A stretch of 64,000 nt of DNA, from contig CAYYLM010000002.1 in assembly GCA_964472625.1 (NCBI GenBank), positions 9,366-73,365 on the forward strand, given 5' to 3'. Under the pieces are notes generated by a model that saw only the letters and a program-made list of their open reading frames with translations, searched no databases and was not told where the DNA came from. Origin of the DNA: an uncultured Dehalococcoidales bacterium. GTDB lineage: Bacteria; Chloroflexota; Dehalococcoidia; Dehalococcoidales; UBA5760. Position numbers and translations under genes: made by a program. Positions 21,316 through 38,157 of the stretch are shown here, one piece after another. Within the stretch, counting starts at the first letter, position 1. Every line of letters starts with the position of its first letter.

Positions 21316-22641
21316 TTAATAATACATCTTGCCCATGTCAATACGCTCGCCAAGACTCCGCTTATAGGGAACAAAGTGAATCGCTTCTTCTGGGCAAACT
21401 AACAAGCACAGCCCGCAGGCGGCACAATTGTCCTGGTCAACATGAGCTACCTCGTGCTCCATATATATAGCCGGGCAAATACCATCGGCACAAATTCCAC
21501 AGCCGGTACACTTACTTACATCTACCTCAGATCCCAGTTTCAGCTTCCTTGCTTCGTTTACAGCTTGATTAATGGGTTTGATGTATTTCAAAGCAATACC
21601 TCGAAAGTCATCAATGGTTTTGTATCCGTGATCATCCATAAACTTAGAAAGGAAACTGGCAATCTTTCCGAGCTGGCGGGTACCACGGAACATAACACCA
21701 GACGCAGTTTGTCCAGCTATAGCCCCAAGCATTATAGATTCTACAAGGTGCTCCCCGGTGATTAGGCCACCTCCAGCCCAGATATCAATCTTCCCTGGGA
21801 AAAACATGGCAGTACAAGCTGTATAGAAATTACTAGGTATTCTAATTGGGTCGCTAGCACCGGCACAGGTTAGTTGGTTGGTTTCTACCTCCTTTAGAAT
21901 AGGCCATAAGGGCTTGCCCCCATTGTGGATGTCGATAGGTCCCACTGCTAATGGGTAATGAATACTCTGTACGAATTTTGCCCCAGCATTTATGGAAGCT
22001 TCAACTACTGCCATCACACCAGGAAAGCCCGCTTGGGGTGTCATTTTCAATCCAACCGGAATCTTCACCGCTTCCACCGTTGCTTTTACTATTGGTCCAA
22101 CCAGCGATGCTGAAGCCCCCAACATAACACCGTATTTTTCTTCCATTGTTAAGGCTTTTCCTGGCTTTTCCATAAGAGATAGGGGACAACCCCCGTTTAT
22201 CTCCAACATGTCAGCACCAGCCGATTCTAGCTGCTTGGCGAGGTCAGCGTAAACTTCGGGTCTACCTATAGGGTCAATCAAGCTGGCAACTATTGGTATC
22301 TCAGGAGGGATGGCTTTCTTTAATGCCTCTGTAAATCGCAGGTTCGTGCTAAGAGCCTGATTCACCTCTTCGGGACAGCAAAGATAATATCCATGACGTT
22401 TTCGTTCTCCATAACCCACGTACTGCCCAATCTTAAATTGTCTTATCGGCTGGGGCTCCTCGCCGGGCAGGGTAGATGGTGTGTATACAAAACCGGCTCC
22501 ATGATCTATACAACGCTTATGCCAGTCTACGATCTTCTCCATGGGTCCGGCAGGATACCACCAGTTTAACGGTGCTAAGGATGCGGCACCAATAGGTGAT
22601 CGCATTTTTATTCCGCCTACTGTCGTCGAAATATCAGCCAT
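21316..22641 (-). CDS. Dihydropyrimidine dehydrogenase PreA-like FMN protein with 2x[4Fe-4S] domain
   Basis: EINGGCP active loop, GLKMTP, GGL, C-terminal CTGCGICADGICP and CAACGLCLLVCP. Confidence 0.75.
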   Translation of the reverse strand: MADISTTVGGIKMRSPIGAASLAPLNWWYPAGPMEKIVDWHKRCIDHGAGFVYTPSTLPGEEPQPIRQFKIGQYVGYGERKRHGYYLCCPEEVNQALSTNLRFTEALKKAIPPEIPIVASLIDPIGRPEVYADLAKQLESAGADMLEINGGCPLSLMEKPGKALTMEEKYGVMLGASASLVGPIVKATVEAVKIPVGLKMTPQAGFPGVMAVVEASINAGAKFVQSIHYPLAVGPIDIHNGGKPLWPILKEVETNQLTCAGASDPIRIPSNFYTACTAMFFPGKIDIWAGGGLITGEHLVESIMLGAIAGQTASGVMFRGTRQLGKIASFLSKFMDDHGYKTIDDFRGIALKYIKPINQAVNEARKLKLGSEVDVSKCTGCGICADGICPAIYMEHEVAHVDQDNCAACGLCLLVCPEEAIHFVPYKRSLGERIDMGKMYY

Positions 22642-22713
22642 TTTTCTTTCCTCCTACCTCTAGTATATTTACTTCCGCCATTTCCAGTTAGTCTCTCTTA
22701 GCCTAACTCGAAG

Positions 22714-23154
22714 CTACTTATCTATCCACTTAGTGTAAACCTTGAAGCGGACTTTACCTAGACCGCCATATTCCAGTCCCTGATCCGCACAGTCTACCGC
22801 TTTAATAAAAAGTCCGTTAGGATCAAGCCCTTCAGCGACTCTGTCGAAAATCATGAATATAAAGGTCTGCATACGATCAAGAGCATTAATGCATAGGGGG
22901 AAGGTGGATTCCTCCACATTTATCAATTGACGGTCAACGACTAACTTGTCTCCCACCTTAGCCCGCACAGCACAATTTTTCACGTCAATAACCTCAAAAA
23001 TCGTCCTCAGCTTGGCTTGATCCTCACGATGTGCTATTAACTTTAGCCATCCTGGCGTCAGTTTTTCCAAATCTTTATCTTTGAAGCCAAAACGCCCTTC
23101 TATATACTTCCGTGTTGCTTCGTCGATCTTTTCCATTTTCTTACCGACCTCCAA
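22714..23154 (-). CDS. Conserved hypothetical protein (TIGR04076-like)
   Basis: KNC..RAKVGDK...LCINAL...DCADQG...GKVRFKV pattern; co-oriented with the PreA-like gene. Confidence 0.5.
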   Translation of the reverse strand: MEVGKKMEKIDEATRKYIEGRFGFKDKDLEKLTPGWLKLIAHREDQAKLRTIFEVIDVKNCAVRAKVGDKLVVDRQLINVEESTFPLCINALDRMQTFIFMIFDRVAEGLDPNGLFIKAVDCADQGLEYGGLGKVRFKVYTKWIDK

Positions 23155-23266
23155 ACAACGAAATATTAGCCTTCAGCAACGTAAGTCACATGTGAGGGAT
23201 ATAGACTGTGTCGTATGCTATAGGGTATTATACCATATATGAAGTAGGAACAAGGAGGTTAGTTAA

Positions 23267-23626
23267 ATGAAGAAATATCGTATTGTGCCTTTACCTATAG
23301 GCACACTGGAGGTTGATAAATCGTGCATGATGTATTTCACAGAACCAGGAGTGCCTATTACCCTTCCAACGATATCTTTTTTCATTGAAGGGGGGGAGAA
23401 AAATATTTTGGTGGATACGGGTGCGTCGGCGGAGGTAATGAAAAAACATTGGGCTGGAGCTGTTAGTGATGTCCAATCTTTTGAGGAAGCATTAGCAAAA
23501 CTGGGCCTAAAACCCGAAGACATAGATATTGTTATACAAACGCATTTGCATTTTGACCATGCTGGAAATACTAGAAGCTGGGACCCCATCAGGTCAGGTT
23601 TCAGGATCTTACGGATATCTTTATGA
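23267..23626 (+). pseudogene. 5' half of an N-acyl-homoserine-lactonase-like metallo-beta-lactamase
   Basis: ILVDTG and IQTHLHFDHAGN motifs, then unrelated sequence from about 23576; the distal His/Asp metal ligands are missing. Confidence 0.75.
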
Positions 23627-24932
23627 ATTCCTCATAACAGGAGCTTTCAGTAGCGTTTCTAGAGAGGCTGAAGACCTTGACATCAAATACAATTTCTTAG
23701 CATATTTAGCAAACTTCATGTTTGAAAATGACATTAGAGATGTTGGGGGGGAGACCTTGAGCGAAATAGCTTCGAACTTCAGCAGATATGCCAAGGTGAC
23801 GATAGCGCACGAGAACCTCAAACGGGAACTCATCATCTCTAAGGTGATGAAGATAAAAGACGGTGCGTATTGTTTTAATCATCCATATGTATATCACTAC
23901 TTTGTGGCACGATATTTGAGTACCATCATTAGAGATCCTGATGCAAGTGCTGAATTCGAGACCAAACTAAGCAATATTATCAACAATCTACAGGATGATG
24001 AGTCAGCGAATATTGTCGTTTTTCTCTGCTATCTAGTGCCAGGTGATGCTTCTCTCATTGATAAAATCATTAGGAAAGCTAGGGAACTCTTCACTAGCCA
24101 GAAAGAATTCAATTTTCCATCAGATGCAGAATTCTTTGACCGGTTTTCTTACAAGGAACCCGTCATAACTGTCTATGCTGTTGCCCCTGAAACAGCAAGG
24201 ACAATGTCAAGACGGGCTTTGGATGAACAACAACATGAAGATAAGCTAGAAAAGAGCCACTCACGAGAAATTGGGGTTAATGAGAAGGAAATCATTACAG
24301 AAATCAGACTTGCCAATAAAGTCATGCTTGTTCTTGGTCAGATTCTACGGTCCTTTCCTGGTTCTCCAGGCAAAAGAAAGCATCCCTTGGCAGAAGAGTG
24401 CTGCAAACTTGGAATGCGTTTGCTATCCGCATCAATGAAGGAACTTATACAGAAGTCGCCTGCAGTCAGAAAGCAATTCGTAGACTTCTTCAAGAAAGAA
24501 TTTCCCAAAGCCCGAGAGGGATATGCTATTGCTCATGCCAATAGTTTTGTTTTCATGTTGGGAGAAATGAGTTCACAAAATATCATCAAATCGGTAGCCA
24601 TGTCAATTGGCTCACCAAGATTAGCACCACTGTATGATGAAATGTTGCAAATAGACCAGTCAGTGACATTCCAATTGATAAACATATGTATTCGATTGAA
24701 TCACTTTAAAGCCATCCCAGAGCGAGAAATGGTGGCGACCTATAAAGCTGTCAAGGGAAGACACTTCTCCTCAACGCTATTGAAAATACTCGCTATTGAG
24801 TGTCTGCTTAGACACCCGCCTTCTATATCAAAGCAGCAAAGTATCTTTAAAAAACTAGGTATTGTTATTGATGATAAGCCATCATTATCTACCAGGCTTG
24901 CCAAAGCGAGGTTAGTTAAACGGGGTAGATAA
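23550..24932 (+). pseudogene. C-terminal part of a STAND-like NTPase (P-loop and effector missing)
   Basis: SYGYLYEFLIT helical region, YCFNHPYVYHYFVARYL winged-helix motif, long helical tail; no Walker A; AT-rich relative to flanks; no credible own start. Confidence 0.55.
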
Positions 24933-25050
24933 GTTCATCAGCGTGTAAATATAACCCCACCCTAATGAAGGCTCCAGTGCTAAAGTTAGTTTAGAACATC
25001 TCTCGGAATCAATGATGATTATCTCCATAAAACAACCAATTGTCCAAAGT

Positions 25051-25075
25051 TGACCTGCCCCCAAAAACTAGTCCA
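25051..25075 (+). mobile_element. Orphan IS3-family terminal inverted repeat remnant
   Basis: TGACCTGCCCCCAAAAACTAGTCCA resembles IS3/IS150-type ends (TG...CCCC-A-run...CCA); no transposase or partner IR seen. Confidence 0.4.
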
Positions 25076-25339
25076 GTTATAATGTTAGCCTAGTGACTAG
25101 AAAGGGGTATGAATGGTTAGAAGGGCCGAATCTGAATGCACATATTTGTTCAGAGGGGTCAATCATCAGCAAAAATGGGGCACAATGGGTAGATTTTGAA
25201 GACACATTAGATTATATTGTTCAATAAAATGCTGGCTATGTTGGCTTATCCTCTTGACTTAGGTTCAGGGTGTGACACAGTTCATTATCTAGAATTTAAT
25301 ATAACCTGGCTCGACTCCTGTATTACAGATCTACTAATG

Positions 25340-26293
25340 TCATTTATTTGGTGGAGGTATATAGACGTCTTTAACAGATGGGGGTCGTACTATTCTATAT
25401 GTTTTGCCATCGACTGATTTTATTATTAGTCCATCCTTGTCCTTAAGCTCTTTCTTTCTTTTCACAGGCTTTCTATCCGGAATAGTATCCAGAAGGTTAA
25501 CGGTTTCTCTAAGATGCTTTGGTAGTAAGCTTAAATAGGCCTCCGTTGTACCTATCCTTGAATGTCCTAACAGTTCCTGAACAGCTTTAATGTTTGCCCC
25601 TTTTTCCAATAGACGGGTGGCGTAACCATGCCGTAAGCTGTGAACGTGAATATTCACCCCGGCCTTCTTGGCTATTCTACTTATTTTGTCGCTTATGGCG
25701 ACGGGTTTAACGTTGAATATACTATCTCCCGAACTCATACTCTTAATATGCTTTTCTAATAATCTGACTATGCGAGATGGCAAAGGAACCGTTCTATCCT
25801 TTTGGCCCTTACCCTTTCTGACAATTAGAGCTTCTTCGGCTATAAGAATGTCGCTGACCTTAAGATTGGCAAGTTCCTCGTGCCTTAAGCCGGAGTTATA
25901 GGCAAGCTCGATAAGTAAAATGTCACGATCAATGTCCTGTTTATGAGTTCGTTTTTGCTTTACGGTATCGATCATCTTTTGTACGCTCTCATCTTCGACA
26001 TATTCGGGAAGCTGGTGCGGGAGTTTCACCTTCAGGTCGATGTCTTCCCCGTACCACTCAAGGAATCCCTTAATGATGCTCAGGTATTTATAGAGGGTGG
26101 CCGGTCTGCTTTTACTCCATTTACTTAGGAAGCTTTTGGCGTGCATGGCCGAGGGCTGATCGCCCCTGAGGAATTCTTGGAATTGGTCGAGTACCTGGCC
26201 GTAGCGGATGAGGTTTCTCTGATTACGGATGCGAAGGGCCAGTTCCGCTTGATAGAGGGTGAATAAATCTTCGTTTGTTTTAGTTCTCAGCAA
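25340..26293 (-). CDS. Tyrosine recombinase/integrase
   Basis: Catalytic set SGLRHEEL (R), GKGQKDR (K), HSLRH, LLGHS, TEAY intact. Start reassigned to TTG 26293, 6 nt after AGGAGG. Confidence 0.92.
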   Translation of the reverse strand: MLRTKTNEDLFTLYQAELALRIRNQRNLIRYGQVLDQFQEFLRGDQPSAMHAKSFLSKWSKSRPATLYKYLSIIKGFLEWYGEDIDLKVKLPHQLPEYVEDESVQKMIDTVKQKRTHKQDIDRDILLIELAYNSGLRHEELANLKVSDILIAEEALIVRKGKGQKDRTVPLPSRIVRLLEKHIKSMSSGDSIFNVKPVAISDKISRIAKKAGVNIHVHSLRHGYATRLLEKGANIKAVQELLGHSRIGTTEAYLSLLPKHLRETVNLLDTIPDRKPVKRKKELKDKDGLIIKSVDGKTYRIVRPPSVKDVYIPPPNK

Positions 26294-26384
26294 GAGTCGC
26301 CTCCTGCTTTTCCCGTCTAGGACAAATAGTAGCAGTTCTCCTAATGATGAATCAAGACTAGAACTGACGTCTTTTTGGTAAAAA

Positions 26385-26456
26385 AGCGGGTGAAGGGATT
26401 CGAACCCTCGACGTCTTGCTTGGGAAGCAAGCACTCTGCCACTGAGTTACACCCGC
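26385..26456 (-). tRNA. tRNA-Gly(CCC)
   Basis: GCGGGTG/CACCCGC acceptor, CTTGC-TTCCCAA-GCAAG anticodon arm, GTTCGAATC T-loop, U discriminator, CCA not encoded; TTGATT-17-TAGAAT promoter upstream. Confidence 0.95.
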
Positions 26457-27313: not shown

Positions 27314-28111
27314 ATGGAATGGGGAATGGCTAACCGTATGGCGCAATTAATTCAATCAGACGGGCATGCGCTTTTCTTGCCGGTAGACCACGGGTATTTC
27401 CAGGGTCCTACCAGAAGATTGGAAGAGCCGCGTAAAACTATTGAGCCGCTGCTACCCTATGCGGATGCTATTTTCATTACTAGGGGTGTGTTACGCTCGT
27501 CGGTGTCGCCTGATAATACCAAACCAATTATTCTTAGGGTGTCGGGGGGGACCAGCGTGGTGGGGAAGGACCTGGCCAACGAAGGGATTATCACTTCTAT
27601 GGAGGAGGTTATCCGCCTTAATGCTTCGGCGATAGGCATTTCTATCTTTGTGGGTAGCGATTATGAGAAAGAGTCTTTACTTAACCTGTCAAAGCTCGTC
27701 GACGAGGGAGAGAGGTACGGCATACCGGTGATGGCGGTGACTGCGGTGGGTAAGGAGCTTGAGAAGAGGGACGCGCGCTACCTAGCCCTAGCCTGTCGTA
27801 TCGCCGCTGAGTTGGGGGCGCGGGTGGTGAAAACCTACTGGTGTCCCGGCTTTGACAGGGTGGTTCGCGGTTGTCCGGTTCCCGTGGTTATGGCTGGTGG
27901 CCCCCAGGTTGATACTGAACTTGAGGTGTTTCAATTTGTCGATGATGGTATGCAGAAGGGTGCTATCGGGGTGAATCTGGGCCGGAACATCTGGCAGAGT
28001 GACTATCCGGTGGCCATGATTAAGGCGATTAGGGCTATTATTCATGATGGAGCTAGCGCAGAACAAGCTCAAGAGGTGTTCAGTGCGGAAAAAGAGGCGA
28101 AAAGCCGGTGA
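27314..28111 (+). CDS. lsrF: LsrF-like thiolase/class I aldolase (DhnA family)
   Basis: PVDHGYFQGP, ILRVSGG, LGARVVKTY (Schiff-base Lys), MAGGP, GRNIWQ. Confidence 0.8.
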   Translation: MEWGMANRMAQLIQSDGHALFLPVDHGYFQGPTRRLEEPRKTIEPLLPYADAIFITRGVLRSSVSPDNTKPIILRVSGGTSVVGKDLANEGIITSMEEVIRLNASAIGISIFVGSDYEKESLLNLSKLVDEGERYGIPVMAVTAVGKELEKRDARYLALACRIAAELGARVVKTYWCPGFDRVVRGCPVPVVMAGGPQVDTELEVFQFVDDGMQKGAIGVNLGRNIWQSDYPVAMIKAIRAIIHDGASAEQAQEVFSAEKEAKSR

Positions 28112-29160
28112 CTCGCGGTAGCCAGGCGGCCATGCACGTCGCTATGTGGTATAACAACCGGGACGTGCGCATAGAGGAAATACCTGTCCCTGGGATAGGT
28201 GCCGGTGAGCTCTTGGTACGGGTGGAGGCCTGTGGTATCTGCGGCAGTGATGTCATGGAGTGGTATCGGCGTGACCGGGCGCCTCTGGTGCTGGGCCATG
28301 AGATTGGTGGACAGGTTGCGGCGGTGGGTGAGGGGGTGGCGGCTTATCGAGAGGGTGACCGAATAACCGCTGCCCATCATGTTCCGTGTAATACCTGTCA
28401 CTACTGCTTGAGGGGGCATCATACGGTTTGTGATACACTCCGCCGGACGAATTTTGACCCCGGTGGTATGGCGGAGTACCTTCGTTTGTCGGCAATTCAT
28501 GTTGACCGGGGGGTATTCCAGTTACCAGACGCCATATCTTATGAAGAGGCAACCTTCATCGAGCCGTTGGCTTGCGTCCTGCGGGGGCAAAGGCTGGCAA
28601 ACATGCGACCTGGGAGCAGTGTGCTCGTTATTGGTAGCGGTATTACCGGGCTTTTGCATGTCCAGCTAGCGCATGCTTCAGGAGCTAGTCAAGTAGTGGC
28701 TACCGACATAAGTGATTACCGCCTCAAGGCAGCCGAGCGGTTTGGGGCTGAGATTACCCTCCATGCTGATGAGGACTTGCCTAGCTACCTGCGCCAGGTT
28801 AACCAAGGTCGTCTGGCTGACTTGGTGATATTATGTACTGGTGCCAAATCAGCCATTGGCCAGGCACTAGGGTCAGTGGAACGCGGGGGTACTGTGCTGC
28901 TCTTTGCTCCGACGGATCCCGGGGTTAATATCCCGATTTTCATAAACGAGCTTTTCTTCCGCAATGATGTCACACTGACCACTTCCTATGCTGGGAGTCC
29001 GGCTGACTACCAGACAGCGCTAGAGCTAATCCGGGCCGGTACCTTGTCGGTGCGCCAGATGATTACCCACCGCCTGAGTCTGGCCGAGGCAGGCTTAGGC
29101 TTCCAGCTGGTTGCTGGGGCCAAAGACTCTCTTAAGGTGATAATTGAGCCTCAGCGCTAG
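28108..29160 (+). CDS. Zn-dependent (MDR) dehydrogenase, sorbitol/threonine dehydrogenase-like
   Basis: CGICGSD, GHE, CNTCHYCLRGHHTVC, GSGITG; true start may be ATG 28132. Confidence 0.85.
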   Translation: MTRGSQAAMHVAMWYNNRDVRIEEIPVPGIGAGELLVRVEACGICGSDVMEWYRRDRAPLVLGHEIGGQVAAVGEGVAAYREGDRITAAHHVPCNTCHYCLRGHHTVCDTLRRTNFDPGGMAEYLRLSAIHVDRGVFQLPDAISYEEATFIEPLACVLRGQRLANMRPGSSVLVIGSGITGLLHVQLAHASGASQVVATDISDYRLKAAERFGAEITLHADEDLPSYLRQVNQGRLADLVILCTGAKSAIGQALGSVERGGTVLLFAPTDPGVNIPIFINELFFRNDVTLTTSYAGSPADYQTALELIRAGTLSVRQMITHRLSLAEAGLGFQLVAGAKDSLKVIIEPQR

Positions 29161-29342: not shown

Positions 29343-30302
29343 ATGGATATTGAAAAGGAAAAGCTAGTGTGGATGTACCGGACAATGGTCCGAATCAGAA
29401 CCTTTGAAGAGAGGGTAGGTGAGGAGTTTGCCGCTGGCAAGATTCCTGGTTTTGTCCATTTGAGCTCGGGACAGGAGGCTAATCCGGCTGGGGTGTGTGC
29501 TAATCTTAGGCCTGACGATTATATCACTAGTAACCATCGGGGGCACGGCCATCTGATTGCTAAAGGCTTGAAGCTGGACGTGATGACGGCGGAGGTCTTT
29601 GGTAAGAAGACCGGTGTTAATAAGGGTAAGGCCGGCTCTCAGCACCTTACTGATATGGCAGTTGGCTGTTTAGGGGCTGAGGGGATTCAGGGCACTCCCG
29701 TGCCGGTGGCGGTTGGTGCTGCCCTCTCGGCTAAGTTGAGGGGTACCGACCAGGTTGCGGTGGCTTTCATTGGAGACGGTACCCTGAATACGGGGAGATT
29801 CCACGAGGGATTGAACCTGGCAGCAGCCTGGAAGCTGCCCCTTATCTGCTACTGTGAAAACAATATTTGGGCGGAGTCAACCAATATCTATGATGTTACC
29901 GCGCTGACTAACATTACTGATAGGGCTGTTGGCTATGGTATCCCCGGGGTAGCTGTTGACGGTAATGATGTACTCGCCGTCTATGAGGCGGTGCGCGAGG
30001 CAGTTGCCCGAGCCAGAAGAGGTGAGGGTCCTACCTTTATAGAAGGTAGAACCTGCCGGCGGCGCGGTCACTTTGAGGGCGATACCCATCTCTACCGCAC
30101 CCAGGAGGAGAAGGACGAGTGTCGGAAGCGGGACCCCATCCCCAGATTCAGGGAGAAGCTGATTGAAATGGGAGTTTTAACCGAGGGGGAAGCGGATAAG
30201 ATTGACCAAGAGGTAGCGGAGGAAATGGAGAAAGCGGCCAAGTTTGCTGAGGAAAGCCCGTTCCCTGAGCCTGGGGAGGTCTACGCTGACGAATTCGCTT
30301 AA
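29343..30302 (+). CDS. TPP-dependent dehydrogenase E1 alpha (acetoin/pyruvate dehydrogenase family)
   Basis: GFVHL..GQEA, SNHRGHGH, GDG...ENN TPP motif, RGHFEGD. Confidence 0.9.
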   Translation: MDIEKEKLVWMYRTMVRIRTFEERVGEEFAAGKIPGFVHLSSGQEANPAGVCANLRPDDYITSNHRGHGHLIAKGLKLDVMTAEVFGKKTGVNKGKAGSQHLTDMAVGCLGAEGIQGTPVPVAVGAALSAKLRGTDQVAVAFIGDGTLNTGRFHEGLNLAAAWKLPLICYCENNIWAESTNIYDVTALTNITDRAVGYGIPGVAVDGNDVLAVYEAVREAVARARRGEGPTFIEGRTCRRRGHFEGDTHLYRTQEEKDECRKRDPIPRFREKLIEMGVLTEGEADKIDQEVAEEMEKAAKFAEESPFPEPGEVYADEFA

Positions 30303-30314
30303 GGAGGCAAGATA

Positions 30315-31301
30315 GTGAGAGAGATAACCTTAACTCAAGCCATAACTGAAGCCGTTGATGAGGAAATGACCAGAGATGCCACGGTATTTCTGTTTGGCGA
30401 GGATGTAAGGCAGTGGGGGGCTCCTCTGGGAGAGTTCAAGGGTCTTTATAAAAAATATGGGCCAGGCAGAGTGCTGGACACGCCGATCTCGGAGACAGCC
30501 ATGATTGGTGCCGCCATAGGTTCGGCCGCCACGGGAATGAGACCGATCGTGCACATCATGTTCGCTGAGTTTTTGACGGTGTGCTTTTCTGATATCTTCA
30601 ACGCCATGTGTAAGCCGAGGTACATGTCGGGGGGGAAGATAAAGTTTCCGGTGACGATTATGAGCTATTGTGGTGCTGGTATATCGGCGGCGGGGGAGCA
30701 CTCGGGGTGTCTTGACGGTATGATGATGAGCATTCCGGGACTTAAAATTGTGCAACCGTCCACTCCCTATGATGCCAAAGGCCTAATCAAGTCGGCGATC
30801 AGGGATGATAATCCCGTTCAGGTTTTTTATCATAAGAAGCTGATGCTTAGCGGTCTAAAGGGTGGGGTGCCAGAGGAGGAATACACAGTACCCTTGGGGA
30901 AGGCGGATATCAAGAGAAAGGGTAGCGATGTTACCGTGGTGGCTACTGCCCTGATGCTTCACCGGGCGCTGGCTGCAGCCGAAAAGCTTCAGGCGAAGGG
31001 TATCAGCGTCGAGGTTATTGACCCACGCACTTTGGCACCTCTTGACAAGGAGACTATCATAAGCTCGCTTAAGAAGACAGGCAGGCTGGTGATTATGGTT
31101 GAAGAGCCAAAGACGGGAAGCTCGGCGTCTGAGATCGCGGCGGTAGTAGCTGAGGAAGCCCTTGACCTGCTTAAGACACCCATCAAGAGAGTCTGTGCTC
31201 CTGATACGGCTATCCCCTTCACTCCAGCGCTGGAGAAGGTTTGGATGCCGAGTGAGGAGGATTTGATCCAGGCGGTAACCAAGCTCGTAGGAAGTAAGTA
31301 A
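30315..31301 (+). CDS. TPP-dependent dehydrogenase E1 beta
   Basis: FGEDV, DTPISE, EVIDPRTLAPLD, KKTGRLVI. Confidence 0.9.
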   Translation: MREITLTQAITEAVDEEMTRDATVFLFGEDVRQWGAPLGEFKGLYKKYGPGRVLDTPISETAMIGAAIGSAATGMRPIVHIMFAEFLTVCFSDIFNAMCKPRYMSGGKIKFPVTIMSYCGAGISAAGEHSGCLDGMMMSIPGLKIVQPSTPYDAKGLIKSAIRDDNPVQVFYHKKLMLSGLKGGVPEEEYTVPLGKADIKRKGSDVTVVATALMLHRALAAAEKLQAKGISVEVIDPRTLAPLDKETIISSLKKTGRLVIMVEEPKTGSSASEIAAVVAEEALDLLKTPIKRVCAPDTAIPFTPALEKVWMPSEEDLIQAVTKLVGSK

Positions 31302-31418
31302 GAGACCGGCGGGTAAGATAGCAGCTTAGAGTATAGTAGGTAGGCGTTAGGCTAAGAGGGATTGATACCCTTAATTTCCATTATAGTGTGGCCCCGGGTG
31401 CATTGTAATCTGAAGTGA

Positions 31419-32444
31419 TTGGTGCTAATTATGGGTGAGGTAAGTCCAGCCAAGATTAAGGTTCGAAAGATTACTCAGGTAGCCATCGCAGTGCATAATC
31501 TGCCCATGGTGGTGGAGAATTACTGGAAGATCCTGGGCATCGGTCCGTGGAATATCTATGCCTGGGAATACCCCCTGGTTTCCAGTCGTACCTACCATGG
31601 CCAACCAGCCTGGTCACGGGAGAAGATATGCCATGCTATGGTGGGTGATGTCGAGTTTGAGTTGATGCAACCGGTTGATGGTCCCTCACTTTACCGTGAT
31701 TTCCTCGAGGAGCATGGCGAAGGAATCCATCACCTGCAGTTCCTAGTTGATGATTTCGACGAGACAACGAGGATACTGACTGAGGAATATGGTTTTACTA
31801 GCCTACAGAGTGGTAGCTGTGGGCGCACTGAAAAGGGCTGTCGTTATAACTATGTCTATTTTGAGCCTCTCGGCTGTATTTGGGAGGTAGTCGACTGTGA
31901 AGAGGGTATCGGTGGGGAACCTACCAGCCGCTATCCAGAAAGAGCTCAGGACAGCCCGGCTAAACTCAAGGTGAAGAATATCAACCGGGTGGCTATTGTG
32001 GTCGAGGATGTGCCGAGGGCAGCGGAGAGTTACTGGAATGTGTTGGGTATTGGCCCCTGGGCTATGTATGAGTGGGAGGAGCCTCTTATCTACGATCGGA
32101 AATACCGTGGTAAGCCAGCTTGGGGTAGGGAGAGGGTTGCTATCGCCGATGTCGGTGGAGTTCGGCTTGAGCTATGCCAACCGGTGGCGGGAGACTCTGC
32201 CTATCGTGACTTCCTCGAGGAGCACGGACCAGGCCTTCACCATATTAGCTTCTTGGTTGATGATGTCGATAAGGCGAGCCAAGTACTAGCTCAGGACGGT
32301 TTCCCCAGTCTCCAGAGCGGGCGTTTTGGAGACCCTGAGTCGGGGGATGCCTATAATTATATCAATATTAAGCCGCTCCGTGCTATCTGGGGACTAGCCC
32401 ATTATGACGAGAGGAATTTGGCGCCTACTTTGTATCCACGTTAG
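31419..32444 (+). CDS. VOC/methylmalonyl-CoA epimerase-like protein with two tandem VOC domains
   Basis: Two repeats of (Q/R)VAI.V...LGIGPW...EL.QPV.G.S.YRDFLEEHG.G.HH..F.VDD. Confidence 0.8.
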   Translation: MVLIMGEVSPAKIKVRKITQVAIAVHNLPMVVENYWKILGIGPWNIYAWEYPLVSSRTYHGQPAWSREKICHAMVGDVEFELMQPVDGPSLYRDFLEEHGEGIHHLQFLVDDFDETTRILTEEYGFTSLQSGSCGRTEKGCRYNYVYFEPLGCIWEVVDCEEGIGGEPTSRYPERAQDSPAKLKVKNINRVAIVVEDVPRAAESYWNVLGIGPWAMYEWEEPLIYDRKYRGKPAWGRERVAIADVGGVRLELCQPVAGDSAYRDFLEEHGPGLHHISFLVDDVDKASQVLAQDGFPSLQSGRFGDPESGDAYNYINIKPLRAIWGLAHYDERNLAPTLYPR

Positions 32445-32620
32445 CAGTAAATAGCTGGCTGGTGGTTGATTATATCGGTTGCCAAATGGTAGAATGGTTT
32501 CGGGAATCAGTGACTTCGCTTGATGACTTGGCAGCAGGGACTCAGCTGAAATTTAGCTGATAAAGAATTCAAAGGCAGAGGGTCTCTGCTGTTTTATTTA
32601 GTAGTTTTGGAGGTGAAGCA

Positions 32621-34171
32621 GTGGCTACTAAAGTAATTGTCCCCAAGCTAGGCATGAGCACGGAGCCGATTACGCTGGTTGAGTGGAAGGCTAAGGAAGG
32701 CGACCGGGTCGAGAAGGGTAGTGTTGTTCTGGTGGTGGAGACGGAGAAGATCAGGCACGATATTGAGGCTGAGGCGTCGGGGTTTCTTCACATTCTGGTT
32801 GAGGCAGGAAAGGAGGCACCCATCGGTTCAGCGGCGGCTCTTATTGCTGAAACCAAGGAGGAATTGGCGACCCTTAAGAAGGGCGAGGGGGCAGCAGCGG
32901 CCGCTGAGGTTGAGGAGGTTTCCCCAGTTGAAGCTCCCGCTAAGGCGAAAGAGCCCCCCCCGACTGAAGCTTTAGTCGCCGGAACCAAGGTTGTCGTCCC
33001 CAAGCTAGGCATGAGCACGGAGCCGATTACGCTGGTTGAGTGGAAGGCTAAGGAAGGCGACCGGGTCGAGAAGGGTAGTGTTGTTCTGGTGGTGGAGACG
33101 GAGAAGATCAGGCATGATGTTGAGGCTGAGGCATCGGGGTTTCTTCACATCCTGGTTGAGGCAGGAAAGGAGGCGCCCATCGGCTCAGCGGCGGCTCTTA
33201 TCGTCGCTGCCAAGGAGGAACTGGAGGCCCTTCAAAAGGGTGAGGTACCGCTAGCGGCCGCCGAAGTTAAAGAGGCTCCCCCGGCTGAGGCGGAAAAAGA
33301 GCGTATTCAAATCTCCCCCGTAGCTCGTAAGATGGCTGAGGAGCACAGGATAGATATCGCCGAAGTAGTCGGTAGCGGTCCCGAAGGCAGGATTGTGAAG
33401 GAGGATATCGAGAGAGAGATTGCCAAGAAGGCGGCACCTCCCGTTGAAGCCGTAGCTGAGGGGTATCAGGGTAGACGAGTAAAATCCAAGCTCCCGCTTA
33501 CGGGTATCCGTAAGGCAGTTGCGGAGCATATGCACCGGAGCCTATCGGTCTCGGCTCAGCTTACGGTCATGGGCGAATTGGATGTAGCTGAGCTAGTAAA
33601 GTTGCGCAAAAAGCTGGTGGGGCAGGAAGAGAAGCTCGGCGCCCGCGTTACCTATACCGACCTTATGGTAGCCGCGGTGGCTAGGCTGCTCAAAGAATAT
33701 CCACTGGTTAATGCTAGCCTGATAGGTAACGAGATTATACAGTGGGAGGATATCAACGTCTCGGTTGCGGTGGCTATGGAGGAGGGGCTAATTGTTCCGG
33801 TGGTAAAAAATGCCGATCAGAAATCACTGGTTGAGATAAGCAAAGAGTTACGGACGCTAGCTAAGAAGGCGCGGGAGAGGACACTGGCACCGGAAGAGGT
33901 TCAGGGAGGCACCTTTACCATAACTAACCTTGGGGCGTTGGGTGGTGGCTATCGTTTTGAGACGGTAATCATAAATCAACCCGAGTCCGCCATTTTAGGC
34001 ACTGGGGGCCTAAGCGACCGGGCTGTGGTCAGGGAGGGGCAGATTGTGATTCGACCAATCATGACCTATTACCTAACCTACGACCACCGGGTATTTACCG
34101 GGGCGGTGGCAGCGGCATTCATTAACAGCTTAGCCGAGCTATTGCAAACCCCAGAACCTTTAACAGTCTAG
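32621..34171 (+). CDS. Dihydrolipoamide acyltransferase E2 with two lipoyl domains
   Basis: Two VETEKI lipoyl-Lys motifs, ISPVARKMA...GSGPEGRI binding domain, GGTFTITNLG, DHRVFTG. Confidence 0.9.
   Translation: MATKVIVPKLGMSTEPITLVEWKAKEGDRVEKGSVVLVVETEKIRHDIEAEASGFLHILVEAGKEAPIGSAAALIAETKEELATLKKGEGAAAAAEVEEVSPVEAPAKAKEPPPTEALVAGTKVVVPKLGMSTEPITLVEWKAKEGDRVEKGSVVLVVETEKIRHDVEAEASGFLHILVEAGKEAPIGSAAALIVAAKEELEALQKGEVPLAAAEVKEAPPAEAEKERIQISPVARKMAEEHRIDIAEVVGSGPEGRIVKEDIEREIAKKAAPPVEAVAEGYQGRRVKSKLPLTGIRKAVAEHMHRSLSVSAQLTVMGELDVAELVKLRKKLVGQEEKLGARVTYTDLMVAAVARLLKEYPLVNASLIGNEIIQWEDINVSVAVAMEEGLIVPVVKNADQKSLVEISKELRTLAKKARERTLAPEEVQGGTFTITNLGALGGGYRFETVIINQPESAILGTGGLSDRAVVREGQIVIRPIMTYYLTYDHRVFTGAVAAAFINSLAELLQTPEPLTV
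32639..33223 (+). repeat. Near-identical tandem lipoyl-domain coding repeats (32639-32866 and 32996-33223)
   Basis: Long identical nucleotide runs at offset 357. Confidence 0.9.
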
Positions 34172-34188
34172 ATTGATAAGGAAGGTGC

Positions 34189-35598
34189 ATGGAACAAAGG
34201 GACGTAGTTGTCATTGGCGGTGGTCCTGCTGGCTACGTAGCGGCGATAAGGGCCGCCCAGCTGAGGGGTAAGGTAACCCTAGTGGAAGAGGCTAAACTGG
34301 GTGGCACCTGTCTCAATCGTGGCTGTATTCCCACCAAATTCATGCTACGCAGCGTTGAGGCCTACCAATCACTGAAAACTGCGGAGCGATATGGTATCAG
34401 TGTGTCCGGGGCTAATCTGGAACTAACCAAGATGCAAGCCGGTAAGAACGAAGTAATATCAGCTTTAGCTTCAGGGGTTAAGGGGCTTCTTTCGGGTAAC
34501 AAGGTTGAGGTCTTAAACGGGCGGGCTAAACTTACTTCTTCAGGTCAGATAGCAGTGGGCTCCGCTCAGGGGAAGAAAGAGACTATCACTGCTGACAAAA
34601 TAATCCTGGCAACCGGGGCAAAACCAATAGTGTTACCTATTCCTGGGGCTGATAGCCCGAACATAATGAGTGTTGATGATCTGCTAGAGGTAAAGGAGCT
34701 CCCCAAGAGCCTAGTGATTATCGGCGGGGGTGTCGTCGGGGTGGAAATGGCCACGGTCTTTGCCAAGCTGGGCTCACGGGTAAGTCTGGTGGAGATGATG
34801 CCCCACTGTCTGCCAGCTCAGGATGATGAGATAGCCCTAGTTCTAGAGGGTGTGCTTAGGGATGAGGGGATTCAGGTATGCTGCAGTGCCCGGGTGAGCC
34901 GAATTGATGACACTGACGGTGGTAAAGCAGTCGTCTTTTCCGAAGGTGGAGCTGAGCAGAAGATAGAGGCAGAAGCGGTGGCCATAGCGGTAGGCTATCG
35001 ACCGAATGTAGACGGCTTGGGTCTAGAGGAATGTGGCGTGGCGGTCGAGAGGGGTGGTATCCAGGTCAACGAAAAGATGGAAACCAGCGTACCTAATATT
35101 TATGCGGCTGGTGATGTCGTCGGCGGTATGATGCTGGCTTATGTTGCCATCGCTGAGGGGATGGTGGCGGCTGAGAATGCTCGGGGGCTGGATTCAAAAC
35201 TGGATTATAACGCTATTCCGCAATGCATCTTTACCCTGCCCGAGGTAGCCGGCGTCGGCCTCACCGAACAGGAAGCCACAGCTCAGGGGCATGAAATACA
35301 GATTGGCAGATTCCCCTTCATGGCTAACGGGATGGCGGCTATCATTGGCGAACAGCGGGGGCTGGTTAAGATAATTACCGAGCCGAAATACGGACAGGTA
35401 TTGGGGGTTCATATTATTGGCCCTCAGGCAACGTGTCTCATCGCTGAAGCCGCTACGGCTATAAAGCTAGAGAGTACCGTTGATGACATTCTGGCCATGA
35501 TTCATGCTCATCCTTCTCTCTCAGAGGCAATCTGGGAAGCGGCGGCGGATGTTAAGGGTGAGGCAATTCACATCCTGTCGCAGAAAAAGAGCGGGTGA
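34189..35598 (+). CDS. lpdA: Dihydrolipoyl dehydrogenase E3
   Basis: GGGPAGY, GGTCLNRGCIPTK, GGGVVGVE, HAHPSLSE. Confidence 0.95.
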   Translation: MEQRDVVVIGGGPAGYVAAIRAAQLRGKVTLVEEAKLGGTCLNRGCIPTKFMLRSVEAYQSLKTAERYGISVSGANLELTKMQAGKNEVISALASGVKGLLSGNKVEVLNGRAKLTSSGQIAVGSAQGKKETITADKIILATGAKPIVLPIPGADSPNIMSVDDLLEVKELPKSLVIIGGGVVGVEMATVFAKLGSRVSLVEMMPHCLPAQDDEIALVLEGVLRDEGIQVCCSARVSRIDDTDGGKAVVFSEGGAEQKIEAEAVAIAVGYRPNVDGLGLEECGVAVERGGIQVNEKMETSVPNIYAAGDVVGGMMLAYVAIAEGMVAAENARGLDSKLDYNAIPQCIFTLPEVAGVGLTEQEATAQGHEIQIGRFPFMANGMAAIIGEQRGLVKIITEPKYGQVLGVHIIGPQATCLIAEAATAIKLESTVDDILAMIHAHPSLSEAIWEAAADVKGEAIHILSQKKSG

Positions 35599-35628
35599 TA
35601 TAATTCACTTTACATAAAATTATGTGAG

Positions 35629-36390
35629 ATGTTGTGTTCGGTCTATCAACTGGGGCGGGTAGGTTATGGCGAGGTGTATCAGCTGCAGACGGACCTCCTA
35701 GACCGGAGGCTAACCGACGGTATCGGAGATACCCTTTTGCTAGTAGAACACCCACCAACGATTACTATCGGTAAGTCAGGTAAAGTAGAGAACATCCTGG
35801 CTTCTCAGGCGGAACTAAGAGAGGGGGGTATCTCGTTATTCTTTGTAGATAGGGGAGGGGATGTTACCTATCATGGCCCCGGTCAGCTGGTGGTCTACCC
35901 GATTATTGATCTTAAGGATAGGGGAAGAGATCTTCACCAGTATATTTATGACCTTGAAGAGGTAATCATAAGGGCTCTTGGCGACTTTAGTATTGGGGCG
36001 GTGAGGGATAAATCCCATCGTGGGGTTTGGGTCGCGGATAAGGAGATGGCGGCCATTGGGCTTAGAGTCAGAAGATGGGTAACCATGCACGGCTTTGCCC
36101 TCAATGTAAATACGGATTTAGACCCCTTTTCACTGATAAACCCCTGTGGCTTCACTGATAGGGGGGCTACCTCAATGGCAGTGGTACTAGCTCAAGAAAT
36201 ACCAATGACGGCCGTAAGCGATAGGATACTGGCCCGTTTTTCAGAAGTTTTTAATGCCGAGATGAAACTTTTCCAAATTCGGACGAAGCCTAGTTCAGAT
36301 GATATGGGTCATGATTTACTTAGGCAAACTAATCTTGATACTCTGGTGAGGGATAAGACTCATGAGAGCCAGACTACCACCCTGGTTTAA
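35629..36390 (+). CDS. lipB: Lipoyl(octanoyl) transferase
   Basis: EHPPTITIG, DRGGDVTYHGPGQLVVYP, HGFALNV, INPCG. Confidence 0.93.
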   Translation: MLCSVYQLGRVGYGEVYQLQTDLLDRRLTDGIGDTLLLVEHPPTITIGKSGKVENILASQAELREGGISLFFVDRGGDVTYHGPGQLVVYPIIDLKDRGRDLHQYIYDLEEVIIRALGDFSIGAVRDKSHRGVWVADKEMAAIGLRVRRWVTMHGFALNVNTDLDPFSLINPCGFTDRGATSMAVVLAQEIPMTAVSDRILARFSEVFNAEMKLFQIRTKPSSDDMGHDLLRQTNLDTLVRDKTHESQTTTLV

Positions 36391-37219
36391 GCAGCGGGCT
36401 AACCCCGAGGCCATGATGGCTATGGAAGGACTTCTTAATAGCCTGAGCCTGCATACTATTTGCCAGAGTGCCCACTGCCCTAACGCCGGAGATTGTTTTT
36501 CGCGAAAGACAGCTACGTTTTTGATTCTGGGTAATATCTGCACCAGGGACTGCCGCTTTTGCGCGGTGGAGAAGGGCTACCCCCTGCCGGTGGATAAAGA
36601 AGAGCCCGAGCACCTGCTTGAGGCAGTAGAGGCGCTGAGTCTGTGTTACGTAGTCATAACCTCGGTCACCAGAGATGACCTTCCCGATGGTGGCGCCGCT
36701 CAGTTTGCTAGAACCGTAAATCTGCTCCGTGAAAAGAGGCCGGGGATTATGGTCGAGGTTCTCGTTCCCGATTTCCTTGGCTCCCGTGAGGCTCTGAGCA
36801 CGGTGGTAGCCGCTTTACCTAGCGTGCTAAACCACAACGTGGAGACAGTGCCCCGTCTTTATTCCGGGGTCAGGTCGAGGGCAGATTACCGGCGCTCTAT
36901 AAGACTCCTCGGTATGGTGAAGGATCTGGACCCGGGGATGGTTACCAAGTCAGGACTGATGCTTGGGCTTGGGGAAACGAAGGACGAAGTAGTCGCCGTC
37001 ATGGAGGACTTAAGGGAAGCCGGATGTGATTTGCTTACCCTTGGTCAGTACCTGCCGCCTTCGCCACAACATTATCCTCTATCCCGGTATGTCTCTCCCG
37101 AGGAGTTTGCTGAGTTCGAGGCGATGGGCAGAAGCCTTGGCTTTGCCGAGGTTGCCTCAGCACCTCTGGTGAGAAGCTCCTTTAGAGCCGCCGAACTCTA
37201 TGCCAAAGCCAAAAACTGA
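36362..37219 (+). CDS. lipA: Lipoyl synthase
   Basis: CQSAHCPNAGDC, CTRDCRFC, HNVETV, RSSF. Confidence 0.95.
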   Translation: MRARLPPWFKQRANPEAMMAMEGLLNSLSLHTICQSAHCPNAGDCFSRKTATFLILGNICTRDCRFCAVEKGYPLPVDKEEPEHLLEAVEALSLCYVVITSVTRDDLPDGGAAQFARTVNLLREKRPGIMVEVLVPDFLGSREALSTVVAALPSVLNHNVETVPRLYSGVRSRADYRRSIRLLGMVKDLDPGMVTKSGLMLGLGETKDEVVAVMEDLREAGCDLLTLGQYLPPSPQHYPLSRYVSPEEFAEFEAMGRSLGFAEVASAPLVRSSFRAAELYAKAKN

Positions 37220-37242
37220 CTAACCGATGGGGATAGCTTACC

Positions 37243-38157
37243 ATGCGAATTGTCTTAATTGCCCACCTCTCACTCGGCTCTAAACTCCTTGAAGCCATTC
37301 TGAAAAAGGGTGAAGAGGTAGTGAGTGTATTTATCCCCGGTGGCGACTCTTCGAAACCATCCCCTCTCAAGACCCTGGCTCAAGATAACGACATTCCGGT
37401 TCATGAGCCAGTTCACATGAAGGATGCCGGCGTTTACAAGGTGATGGCTCCCTACGAGCCAGAGCTGGGGGTGCTTGCCTTTGTTCAGGACATCGTGCCC
37501 GTGGCTATCCTCAACTGTCCCCGGAAGGGAATGATTATGTATCACCCCTCGCTACTACCGAGGCATCGGGGCGGTAGTGCCATGAACTGGGCCGTAATTC
37601 AGGGTGAGACCAAGACTGGGTTGAGTGTCATCTGGCCGGATGCCGACATTGACAGCGGATCGATACTGCTTCAGAAAGGGGTTGACATCCTTCCCGACGA
37701 TACCGTGGGTTCGCTGTTCTTTGATAAGTTGTATCCCATGGGAATTGATGCCCTGACTGAGGCGATTCAGCTTGTTAAGGAGGGTAGAGCTCCGCGCATC
37801 CCCCAGGATGAAAGCCGGGCAACCTGCGAGCCGTTGTGTCAGGAGCGCCACGGCATCATCAACTGGGCTGAGCCTAACCAGGAAGTCTATAACCTGATCC
37901 GGGGCACCAATCCCCGGCCGGGTGCCAGCACTACCTATCGGGGAGAGAAATTGAAAATTTTTGATTCTAGGGTGGTAGGCTCGGCTCCTGGGGCGGCTCC
38001 CGGTGAGGTTATCCTGGTAAGTGATGAGGGGTTTTCGGTTGCCTCTCAGGACGGCAGCATCATGGTCAGGCAGGTGCAACCCCCAGGCTCCGGTAAGATT
38101 AGTGCCGCTGAGTTTGCTGAGAACGTCAATTTGAGGGAAGGCGACCGGCTGGGATAG
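37243..38157 (+). CDS. Formyltransferase family protein (ALDH1L1 N-terminal/Fmt-like)
   Basis: YHPSLLPRHRGGSAMNW, WPDADIDSG, and an Fmt C-terminal domain (IRGTNPRPGA). Confidence 0.8.
   Translation: MRIVLIAHLSLGSKLLEAILKKGEEVVSVFIPGGDSSKPSPLKTLAQDNDIPVHEPVHMKDAGVYKVMAPYEPELGVLAFVQDIVPVAILNCPRKGMIMYHPSLLPRHRGGSAMNWAVIQGETKTGLSVIWPDADIDSGSILLQKGVDILPDDTVGSLFFDKLYPMGIDALTEAIQLVKEGRAPRIPQDESRATCEPLCQERHGIINWAEPNQEVYNLIRGTNPRPGASTTYRGEKLKIFDSRVVGSAPGAAPGEVILVSDEGFSVASQDGSIMVRQVQPPGSGKISAAEFAENVNLREGDRLG

Follow-up and report, generated by a model that had tools for sequence, protein, structure and literature searches.

What does a lipoamide-dependent dehydrogenase complex make when its operon ends in a formyltransferase? 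This question is raised by a 64,000-nucleotide stretch of DNA (the window) on contig CAYYLM010000002.1, from the genome of an uncultured Dehalococcoidales bacterium (GCA_964472625.1; 1.37 Mb, 93% complete). In our internal labels for genomes and loci (G000, G198, L047 and so on), this genome is G000 and the window is G000:C2. A first-pass annotation had described an operon in the order E1 alpha, E1 beta, VOC protein, E2, E3, lipB, lipA and formyltransferase (FT). Eight open reading frames (ORFs) on the plus strand, between 29343 and 38157, bear out that order, with families assigned by Pfam and NCBIfam profile searches. We favor, with somewhat less than even confidence, the explanation that the physiological products of this AcoAB-type complex include formyl-coenzyme A (formyl-CoA) and that FT passes the formyl group on to tetrahydrofolate (THF). 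The coupling of FT to the complex is supported by conserved gene order, one co-loss and a distribution complementary to that of OXC/HACL-type lyases. The lipoamide dehydrogenase complexes known to date yield acetyl-, succinyl-, glutaryl- or branched acyl-CoA, and a natural formyl-CoA-forming member, if real, would extend this family.

The formyltransferase and its partners

FT (37243..38157, plus strand, as are all window genes below) is a protein of 304 aa that matches only PF00551 and PF02911. The motifs quoted by the first-pass annotation are all present (MYHPSLLP at residue 99, GGSAMNW at 110 and DADIDSG at 133), and its placement of FT nearer to ALDH1L1 than to Fmt agrees with searches of solved structures, which match the ALDH1L1/FDH N-terminal domain at E 6e-56 and Fmt at E 2.6e-45. 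The FDH catalytic triad, His106/Ser108/Asp142 (PMC6802093), aligns with H101/S103/D137 of FT. Also like the ALDH1L1/FDH domain (PDB 1s3i, 2bw0), FT lacks the Fmt Asn, which lies two residues before the His (NxH), and carries a hydrophobic residue there; this residue is Met99 in FT and either Met or Gln in 119 of 120 homologues. Unlike ALDH1L1/FDH, FT stands alone, without an ACP-like or aldehyde dehydrogenase domain. It scores 149.8 on the Fmt model TIGR00460, below the cut-off of 201.5. The genome also encodes a separate true Fmt on contig C5, which carries an NIH motif and scores 290.6 on the same model, so FT is not the sole genomic Fmt; the third PF00551 match is a short PurN-like protein. 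FastTree split the Fmt-like rows from the FT family (99% SH-like support). By these sequence comparisons, FT is a subfamily apart from Fmt.

What does this family do elsewhere? We found it in 113 of the 301 Dehalococcoidia genomes searched. At 9 of the 40 Dehalococcoidia FT loci that we read, the gene lies next to an OXC/HACL-like thiamine diphosphate (ThDP) lyase, a class III CoA-transferase (one Frc-like) or fhs-folD, and a Paracoccaceae plasmid carries the order oxc-frc-FT-fhs. OXC and HACL release formyl-CoA. An OXC/HACL1-like gene, called at E <=1e-90 to a query passing the PRK09259 cut-off, occurs in 103 of the 113 FT-positive genomes versus 19 of the 188 FT-negative genomes; the 103 include the unpublished G244, without effect on the overall picture. 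LctF has been demonstrated to transfer formyl from 10-formyl-THF to CoA (PMC11730586), and HypX is proposed to do so (PMC6802093). Because of its formyl-CoA-forming partners and the chemistry of LctF and HypX, we read the family as probable 10-formyl-THF:CoA formyltransferases.

The folate-CoA formyl exchange proposed for FT is like that of LctF, compared here by its chemistry, and of the HypX N-terminal domain, which is distant from FT (E ~2e-12). However, both of those enzymes have biosynthetic settings (lactacystin and a CO ligand, respectively) and work toward formyl-CoA (PMC11730586, PMC6802093). Further parallels are found in the oxc-frc-'fmt2'-fhs oxalate clusters and HACL-type clusters, where the same FT family lies beside a ThDP enzyme and apparently disposes of or supplies formyl-CoA. 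The ThDP enzyme of those clusters acts as a CoA-ester lyase, without any redox step, whereas that of the window belongs to a lipoamide-dependent dehydrogenase complex. If our explanation holds, this widespread "second Fmt" family gains a testable role. At three other loci (L051, L052 and L054), a CoA-transferase III, FT and a 2-hydroxyacyl-CoA dehydratase with its activator occur with a divergent long ThDP lyase, a set that is a candidate for an anaerobic 2-hydroxyacid pathway via formyl-CoA.

An OXC/HACL-type lyase was not found in any of the five operon-bearing genomes that we checked (G000, G227 and G301-G303), which give only acetolactate synthase (ALS)-level matches of ~30% identity, and no class III CoA-transferase was found in G000. 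Fhs is present in all five. This is most simply read as the dehydrogenase complex having taken over from the lyase as the formyl-CoA partner of FT.

Conservation and loss in relatives

Gene order in relatives ties FT to the complex, a check that the first-pass annotation had called for. All 11 further close FT homologues with context (62-89% identity; L034, L035, L037 group, L039, L040, L043, L044, L046, L047, L131 and the P0142 contig) directly follow lipA at the end of the same E2-(E3)-lipB-lipA block, and the upstream sequence shows E2 for 10 of the 11. At L046/G301 we considered whether an E2 "remnant" represents FT surviving without E2, and rejected this since the remnant borders an assembly gap of Ns.

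A genome of the same genus, G198 (97% complete), retains lsrF, a Zn-dehydrogenase gene, E3, lipB and lipA at the syntenic site. It has lost E1 alpha, E1 beta and the VOC gene, its E2 is cut to a lipoyl domain plus the final 15 residues, and all that remains of FT is a 17-residue scar behind lipA. Elsewhere in the G198 genome, neither an E1 nor an E2 catalytic domain nor an FT was found. These scars show that FT was removed by its own deletion in the lineage in which E1/E2 catalysis was lost. This co-loss, a single event, ties FT to E1/E2 and not to lipoate synthesis. The relic operon itself (L185, G198:C12 10753-14412) keeps a lipoyl-only E2, E3, lipB and lipA despite the lack of any genomic E1.

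The complex, its chemistry and its rivals

E1 consists of an AcoA-type alpha subunit (29343..30302; PF00676) and an AcoB-type beta subunit (30315..31301). It is of AcoAB type by the His in its xHRGH motif, its GHFEG loop and its nearest relatives, which lie in aco operons: the window E1 is 53-55% identical to canonical acoAB in L229, and the best plasmid match inspected belongs to an acoR-lpdA-acoABC-butanediol dehydrogenase operon. The GDG and NN motifs for ThDP in E1 alpha and the catalytic Glu60 and His129 of E1 beta are intact. The active site of E1 alpha is a polar variant (H65, Q100 where Met is usual, E113 and Q116), in which Q116 aligns to human Val138, the site mutated in 6CER. In E1 beta, AGEHS replaces AAQHS and Glu128 adjoins the catalytic His129. 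As aligned, these polar changes near the cofactor suggest a polar substrate, neither acetoin nor pyruvate.

E2 (32621..34171) has two lipoyl domains (K43 and K162), an E3-binding domain and a catalytic domain that retains T435 and H489. The lipoyl domains are a duplication (window 32627-33283, 88% identical over 300 nt), and many relatives have a single one. The acyl-pocket loop reads RFET, with Glu447, in 117 of 120 homologues, whereas canonical AcoC and E2p read FTP. Phe568 presumably has a role in the acyl pocket, and our literature search gave no paper for it. The catalytic Asp position is Thr in 55, Asn in 39 and Asp in 19 of the 120 homologues. The AcoC motifs are not matched in the window E2, which reads RFETV and HRVFTG; the aco E2 proteins of Bacillus and L229 have FTP and HRxxDG, and that of Enterococcus has FTP. 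E3 (34189..35598) scores 534 bits on TIGR01350 against a cut-off of 409. LipB (35629..36390; TIGR00214) and LipA (36362..37219; TIGR00510) pass their cut-offs, and each is encoded by a single copy in the genome. We rejected glycine cleavage as the purpose of these two genes, as G000 has no convincing GcvH and only one weak match of 46 residues. A predicted complex of the E2 catalytic domain with FT scored 0.00 and is not counted for or against any explanation. A search for a viral copy of E2 found none.

How does this complex compare with known ones? Like AcoABCL(S,X) of Pelobacter carbinolicus and Bacillus (PMC3543383), it has AcoAB-type E1, E2, E3 and dedicated lipB and lipA, and the Pelobacter aco cluster likewise encodes a VOC protein of the methylmalonyl-CoA epimerase (MCE) family (Pcar_0333) and a Zn-dehydrogenase (PMC3543383). 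Unlike AcoABCL, it has an altered E1 pocket, an E2 with RFET and HRxxTG, three genomic E1 pairs per full E2, a formyltransferase in the operon and no acoX found: a tblastn search with L229 AcoX gave no match in G000. All parts belong to known families, and aco clusters offer precedents for the VOC and lipoate genes. No earlier account of an Aco-type complex that is coupled with a formyl-CoA/folate formyltransferase came to light, nor did any paper linking an Aco- or pyruvate dehydrogenase (PDH)-type complex to a formyltransferase, in a literature search whose coverage left most subscription journals outside.

The VOC protein (31431..32444, with an ORF-finder start at 31419) has two tandem PF13669 domains and resembles MCE. 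Its AlphaFold2 (AF2) model (pLDDT 95.7) has the paired beta-alpha-beta-beta-beta modules and four-ligand metal site of the VOC superfamily, and the nearest single-domain folds are the MCEs 3gm5 (Z 17.9, rmsd 2.6, 144 aligned) and 6wf6. The metal ligands of domain 1 are Q16/E77/H101/E152, in columns kept in 58-60 of 60 homologues; the metal site of domain 2 is degenerate in the window copy. The protein shares fold and four-residue metal site with MCE and glyoxalase I (PDB 3gm5, 6wf6), but differs from them in its tandem domains in one chain and its Q/E/H/E ligands, and it falls below the MCE cut-off (TIGR03081, 84 vs 115). It is most likely a metal-dependent enediol racemase or isomerase for alpha-hydroxycarbonyls, a role also proposed for acetoin clusters in general. 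Such a role fits fold and context, and it matches in part the first-pass suggestion of an upstream isomerase. As a dedicated part of a formyl pathway the protein is less convincing, since it is optional in FT operons (present in some loci, absent from L044 and L047) and also occurs in aco clusters that lack FT. One 56% identical homologue is part of a canonical aco cluster that has acoX, an SDR gene and a sigma-54 activator gene but, within 10 kb, no FT, and at L132 the VOC gene lies between E1 and E2, again with no FT. The aco cluster of another lineage at L229 (1844-21008) encodes a LipB-LipA fusion, Lin0512-family and DUF6506 proteins, a tandem VOC protein, GcvH and an LplA-DUF116 fusion.

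We propose that the ThDP of E1 would attack the aldehyde carbon of a small 2-hydroxyaldehyde, of the glycolaldehyde or lactaldehyde type, or glyoxylate. The aldehyde half or CO2 would leave, and the lipoyl arm of E2 would be reductively formylated. E2, whose catalytic residues are in place, would hand the formyl group to CoA, and E3 would reoxidize the arm to give NADH. FT would transfer the formyl group from CoA to THF, a step suggested by family context and LctF chemistry, and the 10-formyl-THF would enter the Wood-Ljungdahl methyl branch or yield formate and ATP via Fhs. Plant plastid PDH is reported to accept glyoxylate as an alternative substrate, as cited in PMC12655727, and in G000 a GlcD-like/Fe-S/ETF dehydrogenase neighbors the E1 pair on contig C25. 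The first-pass idea that the complex handles a one-carbon acyl group gains independent support from the formyl-CoA-making partners of FT and from the co-loss of FT with E1/E2; the substrate that would supply this group is still a suggestion. A stronger version, which we consider possible and appreciably less probable, is a dedicated formyl-CoA-forming lipoamide complex with a new acyl specificity that replaces the OXC/HACL route in subsurface Dehalococcoidales. By oxidative cleavage of 2-hydroxyaldehydes or glyoxylate, such a complex would feed formyl-level one-carbon (C1) units into the Wood-Ljungdahl folate branch with a gain of ATP.

Several points weigh against our explanation. The co-occurrence counts were taken among kin and overstate independence, and HACL/OXC must be counted as "not found" rather than absent because the metagenome-assembled genomes are incomplete. 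The E1 genes ahead of the FT blocks differ (the window subtype, two tandem pairs or, in L047, near-canonical AcoAB), and FT thus occurs with several E1 subtypes. When the search started from E2, FT was adjacent in only two of five sampled contigs, and L130, L132 and L133 carry the same RFET-type E2 with no adjacent FT on the contig. The coupling is seen in a single lineage, and not everywhere within that lineage. The sister clade of the window E2 lies in acoX-containing acetoin operons (G289, G283), which keeps an acetoin-like substrate in play. The placement of Glu447 in the acyl pocket is by alignment, since the loop has pLDDT <50 in the AF2 model of the E2 catalytic domain, and a one-residue insertion could explain it instead. 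Finally, we found no paper showing that an Aco-type complex makes formyl-CoA.

Could the operon encode an ordinary acetyl-forming acetoin or acyloin dehydrogenase, with FT salvaging formyl-CoA that arises when E1 mistakenly takes up glyoxylate or a hydroxyaldehyde? We hold this to be unlikely and still deserving of serious weight. It accounts equally well for the co-loss, and it fits the AcoAB-type E1, the VOC, lipB and lipA genes known from the Pelobacter aco cluster (PMC3543383), the same-clade loci that do without FT, and a paralogous E1 pair that is divergent from an aldehyde:ferredoxin oxidoreductase. However, the polar substitutions of the window E1 are unseen in AcoA/AcoB, its E2 lacks the FTP and HRxxDG of AcoC, canonical aco clusters lack FT, and acoX was not found in G000. 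It is improbable that FT is a passenger that was inserted behind lipA in an ancestor and serves folate housekeeping (for example as a PurU-like 10-formyl-THF hydrolase) or another formyl-CoA source. The ten operon-linked FT copies do form one clade (100% SH-like support), so the linkage possibly reflects a single insertion, and most of the distant FT homologues have uninformative neighbors. Yet in G198 a separate deletion took FT where E1/E2 were lost and lipA and lipB kept, and no other source of formyl-CoA was found in G000. A plain PDH complex, as annotated in databases, is the least credible explanation. The nearest NCBIfam models are those of PDH E1 and E2, but all PDH models fall below their cut-offs (TIGR03182, 331 vs 394; PRK09212, 318 vs 321; TIGR01349, 316 vs 445), E1 has the His of NHRGH in place of the PDH Tyr, and its neighbors are AcoA-type. 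Moreover, G000 would not need a plain PDH because it encodes POR-family oxidoreductases, ACS/CODH, Fhs and FolD, along with Wood-Ljungdahl genes.

The remaining alternatives concern the route and direction of the formyl group. The first-pass annotation had the formyl group shuttling directly between lipoyl arm and folate, so that FT would take it from the E2 arm, or load the arm, and bypass CoA, much as the ALDH1L1 domain uses its phosphopantetheine arm. The closest structures to FT are indeed ALDH1L1 domains that formylate a swinging arm, and the catalytic Asp of E2 is Thr or Asn in most of the clade. This idea did not hold up well, and we now think it quite improbable: elsewhere the FT family lies beside CoA-dependent enzymes with no adjacent lipoyl protein; ALDH1L1, HypX and LctF use a pantetheine thiol and not lipoamide (PMC6802093, PMC11730586); E2 retains His489 and Thr435; and G198 lost FT yet kept a lipoyl domain and lipAB. 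The hand-off probably goes via CoA. More doubtful still is C1 elongation in reverse, in which FT would make formyl-CoA from 10-formyl-THF and the complex, with NADH, would add the formyl group to an aldehyde to give a 2-hydroxyaldehyde. To our knowledge, lipoamide dehydrogenase complexes run oxidatively in known cases, which counts against it; no acceptor pathway is linked, and the glyoxylate version is impossible as the loss of CO2 is effectively irreversible. In its favor, LctF works in the direction of formyl-CoA (PMC11730586), and the Wood-Ljungdahl pathway of the host could supply 10-formyl-THF.

If the complex does form formyl-CoA, it would provide a new redox-coupled enzyme for synthetic C1 pathways based on formyl-CoA, and it would explain the use of expanded, misannotated "PDH" genes in sediment Dehalococcoidia. 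All of the components are soluble and could be assayed after expression in E. coli.

Flanking genes and further E1 clusters

The intergenic gaps from E1 alpha to FT are, in order, 12, 129, 176, 17, 30, -29 and 23 bp, the last being the distance of FT from the lipA stop. The tightest block, by its short gaps, is E2-E3-lipB-lipA-FT. Promoter and terminator scans of the locus were close to chance level, and the hairpin between the VOC and E2 genes has a z of -1.85.

Two co-oriented genes that the first-pass annotation did not include (27314-29160) end 182 bp before E1 alpha. The first, loosely associated with the operon, encodes an LsrF-type class I aldolase/thiolase (27314..28111; NF006081, 362 bits vs a cut-off of 297). 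The second encodes a Zn-dependent medium-chain dehydrogenase of the Tdh/polyol type (ZnADH; 28108..29160; PF08240/PF00107), whose best NCBIfam model, tdh, is below cut-off; it overlaps lsrF by 4 bp and travels with it. We rejected this pair as a core part of the system: lsrF occurs in 66 of the 301 class genomes, mostly without E1/E2 nearby, and the pair was not found in the FT-operon genome G227 and is retained in G198. No lsr operon context was seen around lsrF-ZnADH pairs in Dehalococcoidia, and a class II aldolase lies near the pair in four loci. Oxidation of 5-deoxyribulose-1-phosphate at C4 would yield exactly the LsrF substrate, and we infer that the pair could be an undescribed route of 5'-deoxyadenosine salvage to acetyl-CoA and dihydroxyacetone phosphate.

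Just upstream of lsrF is a low-GC stretch (41-44%) with a tyrosine integrase (window 22000-26434), and in L044, L045 and L131 an integrase instead comes after FT. At L047 and L130 the operon lies between a cluster for oxygen defence (SUF, rubredoxin and desulfoferrodoxin) on one side and genes for dimethylamine methyltransferase on the other, where L130 also has pyl-like biosynthesis genes. L047 has FT, and L130 has none at the corresponding site.

G000 encodes E1 as three pairs of 62-74% identity and has a single full E2, besides one lipoyl domain and one E2 catalytic domain that each stand alone. The three pairs probably share the single full-length E2/E3. The second pair (L243; G000:C6:67845-69818) is a single fused ORF of 658 aa (660 aa in G303), and an aldehyde:ferredoxin oxidoreductase gene lies in divergent orientation to it. 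The third (L242; G000:C25:7362-17846) lies with a hydantoin/Asp-Glu racemase, two cupins, the lone lipoyl domain and an AMDase-family protein. This cluster converges on a GlcD-like/Fe-S/EtfAB dehydrogenase and reads as a catabolic pathway; the GlcD-like protein scores under the glcD cut-off and might use lactate as its substrate. The stand-alone E2 catalytic domain (HRVLNG), without lipoyl domains, is encoded at G000:C20:27769-28515.

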